Assembly: GCF_003334765.1 (NCBI RefSeq)
Contig: NZ_QOWT01000002.1
DNA length: 64,000 nucleotides
From: Escherichia coli
GTDB taxonomy: Bacteria > Pseudomonadota > Gammaproteobacteria > Enterobacterales > Enterobacteriaceae
Direction: 5' to 3' (one strand)
Shown: in pieces, positions 23,091 through 60,983 of the stretch
Layout: each line of letters opens with the position of its first letter
How positions within the stretch are numbered: the first letter of the stretch is position 1
Notes under the pieces: generated by a model
What the model was told of the DNA's origin: nothing
Databases searched by the model: none
What the model saw: only the letters and a program-made list of their open reading frames with translations
Translations under genes and position numbers: made by a program

Positions 23091-23129
23091 GTGTCGGATG
23101 CACCGCGAAGGCGGCTTATCCGACCTACG
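23091..23129. repeat. REP (repetitive extragenic palindromic) element in the nuoM-nuoL intergenic gap
   Basis: Imperfect palindrome GTGTCGGATGCACCGCGAAGGCGGCTTATCCGACCTACG resembling the E. coli REP consensus. Confidence 0.7.
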
Positions 23130-39423: not shown

Positions 39424-39435
39424 GCAGCCGGAGTC

Positions 39436-39476
39436 TGCGTCGCATCAGGCAATAAGCGCCGGATGCGACATCAGGC
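39436..39476. repeat. REP-like palindromic element between yfbR and yfbS
   Basis: GCGTCGCATCAGGC...GCCGGATGCGACATCAGGC inverted repeat of the REP type between convergent genes. Confidence 0.65.
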
Positions 39477-58018: not shown

Positions 58019-58588
58019 TTATGCGCCCTGCCAGCGGGCAAAGAGATCTTCAGGAAGGGTTATCGCAAACTGGTCAAGAACACGATTAACCGTCTGATTT
58101 ATCACATCATCAAGGGATTGCGGGCGATGATAAAACGCCGGAACGGGAGGCATAATCACCGCACCGATTTCTGCCGCCTGAGTCATTAAACGCAGATGGC
58201 CTAAGTGCAATGGTGTTTCACGCACGCAGAGCACCAACGGGCGACGCTCTTTCAGCACCACATCTGCCGCACGGGTCAGTAAGCCATCAGTATAGCTATG
58301 GACAATGCCGGAAAGGGTTTTGATTGAACAGGGTAAAATCACCATCCCCAGCGTCTGGAAAGAACCGGAAGAGATGCTGGCGGCAATATCGCGCGCATCG
58401 TGCGTGACATCGGCTAATGCCTGCACTTCGCGCAGAGAAAAATCCGTTTCGAGGGATAAGGTCTGGCGCGCTGCCTGGCTCATCACCAGATGCGTTTCGA
58501 TATCTGTGACATCGCGCAGAACCTGTAATAAGCGCACGCCATAAATCGCGCCGCTGGCACCGCTGATGCCTACAATGAGTCGTTTCAT
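58019..58588 (-). CDS. ubiX: UbiX, flavin prenyltransferase
   Basis: 189-aa flavoprotein-fold ORF starting MKRLIVGISGASGA; last gene of the cvpA-purF-ubiX unit. Confidence 0.95.
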   Translation of the reverse strand: MKRLIVGISGASGAIYGVRLLQVLRDVTDIETHLVMSQAARQTLSLETDFSLREVQALADVTHDARDIAASISSGSFQTLGMVILPCSIKTLSGIVHSYTDGLLTRAADVVLKERRPLVLCVRETPLHLGHLRLMTQAAEIGAVIMPPVPAFYHRPQSLDDVINQTVNRVLDQFAITLPEDLFARWQGA

Positions 58589-58682
58589 AAATAGTTGCCC
58601 TGTCAGACTTGCAGGCAGACTTTGCAGGATTTCGGCGGGAGTTGCAAGTCAGGGTGCCAGACCGGCACCCTCAGCGAAGGCA

Positions 58683-60200
58683 TCATCCTTCGTTATGCAT
58701 TTCGAGATTTTCCACTTCGTTCTGACGTTGCACTGCTTTGGCGTCATCATTACGTAACGTATCGAGGAAATCGAGGTAGCCCTGATCAACATCTTTGGTG
58801 ACGTAGACGCCGTTGAACACCGAGCATTCAAACTGCTGGATATCCGGATTTTCAGCGCGAACGGCGTCGATCAGATCGTTCAGATCCTGGAAAATCAACC
58901 CGTCAGCACCGATGATCTGGCGAATTTCATCAACTTCGCGACCGTGAGCGATCAGTTCCGTGGCGCTCGGCATATCAATACCATAAACGTTCGGGAAGCG
59001 AATTTCCGGTGCCGCAGAAGCGAGGTACACTTTCTTCGCTCCGGCTTCGCGTGCCATCTCGATAATCTGCTCAGAAGTGGTGCCACGGACGATGGAGTCG
59101 TCGACCAGCAGGACGTTTTTATCGCGGAACTCGGCGCGGTTGGCATTCAGTTTACGGCGCACGGACTTACGACGCAGCTGCTGGCCCGGCATGATAAAGG
59201 TGCGGCCAACATAGCGGTTTTTAACGAAGCCCTGGCGGTACGGTTTGCCCAGAATACGAGCAATTTCCAGCGCGATATCACACGAGGTTTCTGGGATCGG
59301 GATCACCACGTCGATATCCAGATCTTCCCATTCGCGGGCAATTTTCTCGCCCAGTTTCGTGCCCATATTCACACGCGCGCTGTAAACGGAAATTTTGTCG
59401 ATAAACGAGTCCGGGCGGGCAAAGTATACATACTCAAACAGGCACGGATTGCTGACCGGATTGTCAGCACATTGACGGGTAAACAACTGCCCTTCTTCAG
59501 TGATGTAAATCGCTTCGCCCGGCGCGACGTCACGCAGGAAATCAAAGCCCAGCGTATCGAGCGCTACGCTTTCGGAAGCGACCATATATTCTGTACGGTT
59601 CTCGTCAATATCACGTTTTCCCAGTACCAGCGGACGAATCCCGTTTGGATCGCGGAAAGCAACCATACCGTGGCCGATAATCATCGCCACACAGGCATAC
59701 GCGCCGCGGATTAAGCGGTTTGTGGCAGCAATGGCAGCGAAAATATTGTCGGCTTCCAGCGGGTAGTGGCGGAAGTTGTCCAGCTCGCTGGCGAAGATAT
59801 TAAGCAGAATTTCCGAGTCGGAAGTGGTGTTGATGTGGCGGCGTTTTTCTTCAAACAGTTTTTTACGCAACTCGTGAGCGTTGGTCAGATTGCCGTTGTG
59901 GGCAAGCGTAATGCCATACGGGGAGTTAACGTAAAACGGCTGCGCTTCAGAGGCGCTGGAGCTGCCAGCCGTGGGGTAACGCACATGACCAATGCCCATA
60001 TTGCCCTGCAAACGCTGCATATGGCGAGCTTCAAATACATCGCTCACCAGCCCGTTCGCTTTACGCAAACGGAAGCAGTTATTGGCATCTATGGTGATGA
60101 TGCCGGCGGCATCCTGACCGCGATGCTGAAGCACCGTTAAGGCATCATAAATCGACTGGTTAACCGGCATAACACCGGCGATACCGACAATACCGCACAT
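58683..60200 (-). CDS. purF: PurF, amidophosphoribosyltransferase
   Basis: 505-aa ORF with N-terminal catalytic Cys (MCGIVGI) and PRPP-binding motif [13 protein letters not shown]. Confidence 0.97.
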
Positions 60201-60236: not shown

Positions 60237-60725
60237 TTACGCTCTGGGCAAGAAACTTGACGAGCTTTGCAGATAATCAAAAAACCATCTGATGATAAAA
60301 CTGAATTGCGGGATCAGCTGTGATTTGCTCCAGTCTTCGCTTTTCGACACCCCGGTAAAGGAGTCGAGAAAGAAGAGAATGGCAGCAACAATCAACACAC
60401 CGCGCAACGCACCGAAACAGACGCCCAGCACCCGATCGGTGCCTGACAACCCCGTTTTCTCCACCAACTGGCCTATCACGAAGTTCACGATAGCACCAAC
60501 GATCAGGGTAGCGATAAACAGTACCGCGATGGCAATCCCATTTCGAACCAGTTCGTCTTCAAAGCCCGTAAACCAGACTGACAGGTAAGTGTAGTAATGA
60601 CTGGCAACAAAGAAAGCACAACCCCATGTCACCAGCGATAACGCTTCACGAACAAAGCCGCGGATCAGGCTAACCAGAGAGGAAAAAGCAATCACCGCGA
60701 TTATGGCGTAATCAATCCAGACCAT
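60237..60725 (-). CDS. cvpA: CvpA, colicin V production membrane protein
   Basis: 162-aa membrane protein; PurR operator about 60 bp upstream. Confidence 0.94.
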   Translation of the reverse strand: MVWIDYAIIAVIAFSSLVSLIRGFVREALSLVTWGCAFFVASHYYTYLSVWFTGFEDELVRNGIAIAVLFIATLIVGAIVNFVIGQLVEKTGLSGTDRVLGVCFGALRGVLIVAAILFFLDSFTGVSKSEDWSKSQLIPQFSFIIRWFFDYLQSSSSFLPRA

Positions 60726-60781
60726 ATGTGTCCCACGATTTTACGCCCTGTCATCCTGTTCGGGGCGCATTCTAACAGAAA

Positions 60782-60797
60782 AAGAAAACGTTTGCGT
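60782..60797 (-). promoter_or_regulatory. PurR operator (pur box) in the cvpA-purF-ubiX promoter
   Basis: Minus strand reads ACGCAAACGTTTTCTT, a perfect match to the 16-bp PurR box, about 57-72 bp upstream of the cvpA start. Confidence 0.85.
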
Positions 60798-60890
60798 AGG
60801 GATTTCCTTCCCGCGCATCAATAAAAATGGCGCTGAAAAAATATTCAACGCCATCGACTTTTTATGCCTTTGCGGCATCGGGCAATGCGT

Positions 60891-60974
60891 GTCGGATGCG
60901 GCGTAAACGCCTTATCCGACCTACGGTTCTACCCCTGCGTAGGCCTGATAAGACGCGCCAGCGTCGCATCAGGC
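60891..60974. repeat. BIME (two inverted REP elements) between cvpA and dedD
   Basis: GTCGGATGCGGCGTAAACGCCTTATCCGACCTACG followed by GTAGGCCTGATAAGACGCGCCAGCGTCGCATCAGGC. Confidence 0.8.
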
Positions 60975-60983
60975 AAGACCGTA

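Follow-up and report, generated by a model that had tools for sequence, protein, structure and literature searches.

A one-unit BIME-2, a conserved terminator-like hairpin and the classical purF operator in the dedD-cvpA spacer of a K-12-like Escherichia coli

The PurR operator of purF is among the founding examples of the pur regulon in Escherichia coli, and binding of PurR to this site is established by published experiments. A ChIP-chip study (Cho et al. 2011; PMC3159470) refers back to Makaroff & Zalkin 1985 and Rolfes & Zalkin 1988 for this PurR site, which it terms 'previously characterized', and detected the cvpA-purF-ubiX peak only when adenine was added; according to the same study, PurR sites lie mostly between -35 and -10. 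A cvpA-purF fragment was shifted by PurR in EMSA (PMC5829826), and cvpA and purF are both members of the Pur-1 iModulon.

The second described system that matters for the locus is the BIME-2 family of repeats (Bachellier, Gilson, Hofnung; Ton-Hoang et al. 2012). A BIME-2 is defined by a z2 and a y REP in inverted orientation, joined by an S linker, and its tandem copy number varies between strains (PMC3333891). Polymorphism of BIME-2 elements and their targeting by IS1397, which inserts into the palindromic units of BIMEs (references in PMC3333891), are already well documented. The roles reported for REPs and BIMEs comprise mRNA stabilisation, transcription attenuation, topological insulation and the binding of gyrase, IHF and Pol I, and for the BIME-2 family binding as well as cleavage by gyrase has been described (PMC3333891). 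In addition, REPs located 15 nt or less from a stop codon are reported to make terminating ribosomes stall and to reduce translation (Liang et al. 2015, summarised in PMC12306157).

The DNA analysed here is a stretch of 64,000 nucleotides (in the following: the window) from a K-12-like E. coli chromosome, which showed one mismatch to MG1655 over 8,001 bases (NC_000913.3, 2426000-2434000); window positions are obtained by subtracting 2,370,038 from the MG1655 position. The region was matched in all 5,426 complete E. coli genomes. ubiX, purF, cvpA, dedD and folC, followed by accD, are all encoded on the minus strand (Table 1). The identities of cvpA, dedD, folC, purF and ubiX are those of the RefSeq annotation. 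We focused on the spacer of 258 bp between cvpA and dedD (60726-60983), which is the same as the MG1655 spacer base for base.

It is very probable that this spacer combines a BIME-2 in the dedD 3' UTR with a conserved terminator and the PurR-controlled promoter of cvpA-purF(-ubiX). According to this explanation, the BIME-2 would be a mobile, recombinogenic and strain-variable single unit that is dispensable for the architecture of the locus, the Rho-independent terminator would end folC-dedD transcription just before the next promoter, and this promoter would use the extended -10 TGTTAGAAT, with the PurR operator covering the -35 and spacer region. With an ample supply of hypoxanthine or guanine, a PurR-corepressor dimer would occupy the operator, RNA polymerase would be blocked and purF would be switched off, and with it the first step of de novo purine synthesis. 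An earlier note on this DNA had pointed out the PurR box and the two-REP BIME; the observation was correct, the elements as such are already known, and a mild by-product of following it up is a series of zero to seven BIME units beside an invariant terminator and promoter.

Table 1. Genes and sequence elements between ubiX and folC, with positions in the 64,000-nt window.
Feature	Position	Strand	Basis
ubiX	58019-58588	-	RefSeq annotation
purF	58683-60200	-	RefSeq annotation
cvpA, first gene of the PurR-controlled unit	60237-60725	-	RefSeq annotation
Discriminator GCGCCCC, G+C-rich, between -10 and putative start	60762-60768	-	near-invariant
Putative extended -10 TGTTAGAAT of the cvpA promoter (TG-extended)	60769-60777	-	conservation
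PurR operator (PUR box) ACGCAAACGTTTTCTT, the classical purF operator	60782-60797	-	sequence, PWM, ChIP-chip listing, conservation
Conserved GGGAAGGAAATCCCT with inverted repeat GGGA..TCCC, directly upstream of the operator	60798-60812	-	conservation
Intrinsic-terminator-like hairpin GATGGCGTTGAA-TATTTT-TTCAGCGCCATT, then TTTTTATT	60820-60855	-	terminator scan, folding, conservation
Small hairpin ATGCC-GCAAA-GGCAT, then A-run; dedD 3' UTR	60864-60878	-	persists in zero-BIME allele
y-type REP: GTAG + GTCGGAT-AA-GGCG-TTTA-CGCC-GC-ATCCGAC	60891-60924	-	sequence; class definitions PMC3333891
S-type short linker GGTTCTACCCCTGC, 14 nt, joining the REPs tail to tail	60925-60938		sequence; PMC3333891
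z2-type REP GTAGGCCTGATAAGACGCGCCAGCGTCGCATCAGGC	60939-60974	+	sequence; stem starts 9 nt past the stop on the dedD mRNA
dedD CDS (stop codon 60984-60986)	60984-61646	-	RefSeq annotation
folC	61636-62904	-	RefSeq annotation

Re-inspection of the minus strand from 60797 to 60782 confirmed the sequence ACGCAAACGTTTTCTT, an imperfect palindrome of 16 bp around a central CG, in agreement with the PurR motif. Its plus-strand reading is AAGAAAACGTTTGCGT, the motif listed for cvpA-purF-ubiX in Table 1 of the ChIP-chip study (PMC3159470). For a PWM scan, as the earlier note had proposed, we built a matrix from the 27 other ChIP-chip motif sites in that table, leaving the cvpA box out (Cho et al. 2011). 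The box ranked first in the window with 21.7 bits, compared with 13.5 bits for the runner-up and a median of 20.0 for the training sites. Whether the box is called perfect, as it had been, depends on which consensus is chosen. It has no mismatch to ACGCAAACGTTTTCNT, which we take to be the PurR consensus of the older literature. For this string the claimed identity holds, whereas the box has one mismatch to ACGNAAACGTTTGCNT (consensus of Cho 2011), one to the SwissRegulon string ACGCAAACGTTTTCCT and two to the perfect palindrome ACGCAAACGTTTGCGT of RegPrecise. Sequence, gene context and genomic position of the E. coli purF operator all equal those of the window box, without any difference. The box is thus the long-known classical purF operator and nothing new, its value as a discovery is small, and the suggested comparison with the published footprint of the purF operator would be circular, since the site in the window is the purF operator itself.

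To follow the box and its surroundings across species, we used the cvpA loci of 80 species representatives from about 25 Enterobacteriaceae genera. dedD lies upstream of cvpA in 77 of the 77 loci for which the flank was available, with DedD identities of 64% to 98%. The 16-mer is unchanged in 76 of 77 other enterobacterial species, and the remaining one shows a single A-to-T change. The box is always found 55-59 nt from the ATG (77 loci; 56 nt in the window), with TTTCTGTTAGAAT coming next. A column profile of 78 sequences revealed a near-invariant block at about 60810-60757, which consists of GGAAATCCCT, the box, a T-rich spacer, TGTTAGAAT and GCGCCCC. GGAAATCCCT is at least 95% conserved in the 78 sequences, and the same level is reached by every position of TGTTAGAAT, which reads TATTAT in one species. 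A scan of the spacer for sigma-70 consensus promoters gave no match because the -35 is poor, and the cvpA promoter was placed by conservation and by the TG-extended -10. The operator lies 7 nt upstream of this conserved element. The start site, and with it the position of the operator, is a prediction: with a +1 near 60760-60762, the operator would extend from about -35 to -20 and thereby cover the -35 region together with some of the spacer, an arrangement common for PurR, which acts by repressing initiation. The overlap with the -35 is suggested by the conserved -10 together with the general statement on PurR sites in Cho 2011.

The G+C-rich discriminator may be a candidate for a role in stringent control. 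As a separate observation, the constraint on GGGAAGGAAATCCCT and GCGCCCC exceeds what the operator and the -10 alone account for; a site for a second regulator, or a stringent-control discriminator, would be possible explanations. The supplement of PMC6131387 holds no entries for cvpA or dedD. In a sigma-70 in vitro run-off microarray, a probe set over the dedD-cvpA spacer gave a signal in the direction opposite to cvpA (PMC3141248), which may simply reflect cross-hybridisation of REP-containing transcripts.

Between the BIME and the promoter, the terminator scan detected a hairpin followed by a T-run as the only terminator-like site of the spacer. It folds with -18 kcal/mol (z = -5.3), and a hairpin of -10 kcal/mol or lower that ends at a T-run at this position is present in 78 of 78 sequences (median -17). 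In two lineages (L065 and L070), the sequence has been swapped for a different hairpin with a T-run of its own, which suggests that structure and U-run are what is kept. The element thus shows a stable G+C-containing hairpin and a U-run, downstream of a gene and on the same strand. Like Rho-independent terminators in general it has a G+C-containing stem (12 bp), a loop (6 nt) and a U-run, and it follows a stop codon and precedes the next promoter; it departs from the typical form through G-U pairs within the stem and an interrupted U-run (UUUUUAUU). This hairpin is most likely the folC-dedD terminator and a likely barrier upstream of the cvpA promoter, its efficiency being a predicted one.

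Two other readings of these conserved elements were considered. If up to three mismatches are tolerated, about 0.8 PurR boxes (0.79) are expected by chance in the window, so that such a search is uninformative alone, and a functionless chance match would be conceivable on this count. However, ACGCAAACGTTTTCTT was the sole match in the window even at this tolerance, the exact 16-mer has an expectation of only about 3e-5 per 64 kb, the hit sits at a promoter, the box is invariant in about 25 genera and PurR binds it in vivo as well as in vitro. Published binding, exactness and conservation together refute the chance reading, to which we give practically no probability. The hairpin with its T-run, in turn, might not terminate transcription but serve the cvpA promoter from upstream, either as an UP-like A/T-rich tract or as a palindrome bound by a protein. 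It is located only some 20 nt upstream of the operator, its sequence as well as its structure is highly conserved, and the available part of the Term-seq tables of Adams 2021 calls no 3' ends in the spacer, neither at the hairpin nor at the REPs. On the other hand, read on the strand of the upstream gene, it displays all features of an intrinsic terminator, the loci L065 and L070 replace the sequence and yet retain hairpin and T-run, and the T-run would be located at about -58 to -67 from the putative start, upstream of the usual position of UP elements. We regard a role as promoter element as very improbable and keep the reading of the hairpin as the folC-dedD terminator.

The earlier note had further claimed that PurR represses at the cvpA promoter and that this repression reaches purF and ubiX. 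Action at the promoter and control of purF are borne out by ChIP-chip and earlier genetics (PMC3159470), by EMSA (PMC5829826) and by the invariance of the box across species, whereas the extension to ubiX is less certain. The annotation gives cvpA-purF-ubiX as one transcription unit, whose three genes show similar behaviour in an in vitro run-off array. In the part available, the Term-seq data of Adams 2021 place a purF 3' end of the class 'primary' about 36 nt past the purF stop, at window position ~58647 in the purF-ubiX spacer (58589-58682). This end lies 5 nt beyond a GC hairpin, GGGUGCC-GGUCU-GGCACCC, that is not followed by a U-run; a search of the purF-ubiX spacer found this hairpin and no canonical terminator or promoter. 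ubiX is not listed together with cvpA-purF in the Pur-1 iModulon, and in an expression meta-analysis it is one of the up-regulated genes, in contrast to the down-regulated cvpA and purF. That ubiX is coupled to the operator is plausible, but less certain than for purF; the coupling is probably partial, and the inclusion of ubiX in PurR control is weaker than the name of the operon suggests.

The second element of the earlier note, a two-REP BIME at 60891-60974, was verified with exact coordinates: two inverted REPs are arranged tail to tail. Each REP carries GTAG 5' of the foot of its hairpin (60939-60942 on the plus strand, 60924-60921 on the minus strand), and both stems contain a 2-nt AA/GC mismatch. 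The z2 REP has the form GCCTGAT..ATCAGGC and the y REP the form GTCGGAT..ATCCGAC with an inner stem GGCG..CGCC. Assignment of the REPs to these classes leans partly on y and z2 consensus sequences that we take to be those of the family. Both hairpins fold stably in the transcript, and neither is followed by a U-run. The orientation of the REP pair, GTAG with the stem mismatch, the S linker with variable tandem copies and the membership in a dispersed family are all found here, and the repeat is a one-unit BIME-2 (z2 + y, S linker). It resembles the described family in the inverted z2 and y REPs, the S linker, GTAG and the 2-nt mismatch, and likewise in a copy number that varies by strain and in the targeting of a REP loop by IS1397; unlike the typically tandem BIME-2, the copies in the window and in K-12 are single units.

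In megablast, a 1.5-kb query that contained the BIME matched E. coli genomes at a median of 15 places each, compared with one place for the flanks without the BIME, which identifies the BIME as the repeated part. An Rfam search of the spacer returned only naRNA4, a REP-derived family, at a sub-threshold 38 bits (gathering score 59.5), and detected no riboswitch or leader families. A z2-style pattern and blastn revealed no second complete BIME in the 64-kb window. Elsewhere in the window, a solitary y-like REP, GTGTCGGATGCACCGCGAAGGCGGCTTATCCGACCTAC, is located at 23097-23128, and degenerate head-to-head REP remnants lie at 39435-39475 between two convergent ORFs.

For the variation among strains we took 60 E. 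coli genomes in even steps down the match ranking, deduced the insert sizes from the match spans and verified them on fetched alleles. The number of BIME units at the locus ranges from 0 to 7 with a period of 91 bp. One unit was present in 40 of the 60 genomes, three of which also carry a 12-bp in-frame deletion in dedD. The others have a shortened, truncated unit (2/60), one unit plus a partial unit (2/60), two (1/60), three (5/60), four (6/60, O157:H7 among them), five (1/60) or seven units (1/60), no unit at all (1/60, strain 4069) or a BIME disrupted by IS1397 (1/60, strain JNE25-003). The zero-unit allele of strain 4069 results from an exact 91-bp loss between the direct repeats TTGCCYGATGC. 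In JNE25-003 (L088, 4776-6124), IS1397, a member of the IS3 family, has inserted into the loop of a z2 REP within a multi-unit BIME and is flanked by a short TGGC-like duplication. Operator, promoter and terminator hairpin show no change in any of the fetched alleles. All sampled Escherichia species have at least one unit, and the first REP stem begins 9 nt past the dedD stop in every Escherichia allele seen. With its invariant terminator and promoter, the locus represents a compact natural allelic series for probing the roles of BIMEs. As a minor observation on the neighbouring gene, dedD has 651 instead of 663 nt in E. coli S1-IND-02-A and HCP5S3_I2 (L086, L087), a difference in length of 12 bp that leaves the reading frame intact.

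Among the genera compared, the slot that separates the dedD stop from the conserved hairpin varies from 23 nt without any repeat in Trabulsiella and Yokenella up to 674 nt in Escherichia sp. E1V33, which has seven units. Citrobacter carries related REPs in this slot, and Enterobacter, Kosakonia and Phytobacter an unrelated palindrome family, CCCTCTCCC..GGGAGAGGG. Given the range of 0-7 units and the absence in other genera, the BIME is not required for the locus. We also noted that a different family of palindromic repeats, CCCTCACCCTAACCCTCTCCCC...GGGGAGAGGGTTAGGGTGAGGG, some of them tandemly arranged, fills the slot of the Escherichia BIME in Enterobacter, Phytobacter, Pseudenterobacter and relatives (L011, L019, L022, L025, L037, L055, L058, L061 and L069). 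It is conceivable, but unlikely, that the slot is a convergent landing pad for unrelated palindromes across the Enterobacteriaceae and that the number of BIME-2 units acts as a strain-variable dial of DedD output or of the topological isolation of the PurR promoter.

What the BIME does at this locus can be read in several ways. The earlier note held that it insulates the cvpA unit from dedD/folC read-through, and in its strongest form this would make the BIME the main device that keeps folC-dedD transcription or supercoiling off the cvpA promoter. Termination or attenuation of transcription as well as topological insulation have indeed been reported for BIMEs and REPs, gyrase targets BIME-2 (PMC3333891), and the two REP hairpins are stable in the transcript. 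However, a canonical terminator that the note had missed follows the BIME in the direction of transcription and is retained by 78 of 78 sequences, the BIME is absent in E. coli 4069, Trabulsiella and Yokenella and otherwise occurs in variable numbers, and its hairpins lack a U-run. The insulation claim is weak in this light: a main role of the BIME is quite improbable, a minor contribution may be made, and the barrier between folC-dedD and cvpA-purF is most likely the conserved intrinsic terminator and not the BIME. A local effect is more likely to concern dedD than cvpA, because the BIME is part of the dedD 3' UTR and its stem begins 9 nt past the stop. This distance is within the 15-nt limit for REPs that are reported to lower translation by way of ribosome stalling and tmRNA, as in nrdAB (Liang, Rudd & Deutscher 2015, summarised in PMC12306157). 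The most likely local effects that we infer are a barrier to 3' exonucleases on the dedD message and possibly less translation of DedD. Alternatively, the BIME may have no selected function here and be a repeat, selfish or neutral, that has come to lie in a permissive 3' UTR and is resized by recombination or by RAYT (TnpA-REP). The copy numbers of 0-7, internal deletions and the IS1397 insertion are in line with this, as are the exact loss of 91 bp between direct repeats, the occupation of the slot by unrelated palindrome families in other genera and the cleavage of BIMEs by TnpA-REP (PMC3333891). Against it speak the retention of at least one unit, exactly 9 nt from the stop, in all sampled Escherichia species, the lowered translation reported for REPs near a stop (summarised in PMC12306157) and the reported stabilisation of upstream mRNA by REPs. 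We give a BIME without selected function a substantial chance, somewhat short of even. It overlaps with our preferred explanation of the spacer as BIME-2, terminator and PurR-controlled promoter, and the sole difference is whether the effect on dedD matters.

Some minor observations concern cvpA itself. The sole base in 8 kb that differs from MG1655 is window position 60285, which lies in cvpA and outside the spacer. Codon 147 of cvpA is TGG (Trp) in the window, in E. albertii and in other Escherichia spp., and TGT (Cys) in MG1655; CvpA of E. albertii and of other Escherichia species is 100% identical to the CvpA of the window, and the MG1655 allele looks derived. Moreover, the available part of the Term-seq supplement of Adams 2021 lists two strong ORF-internal 3' ends within cvpA, one at window position 60568 on the minus strand (MG1655 2430606), which is 157 nt past the start codon, and one at about 60256 (MG1655 2430294). 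These ends could reflect premature termination or processing upstream of purF.
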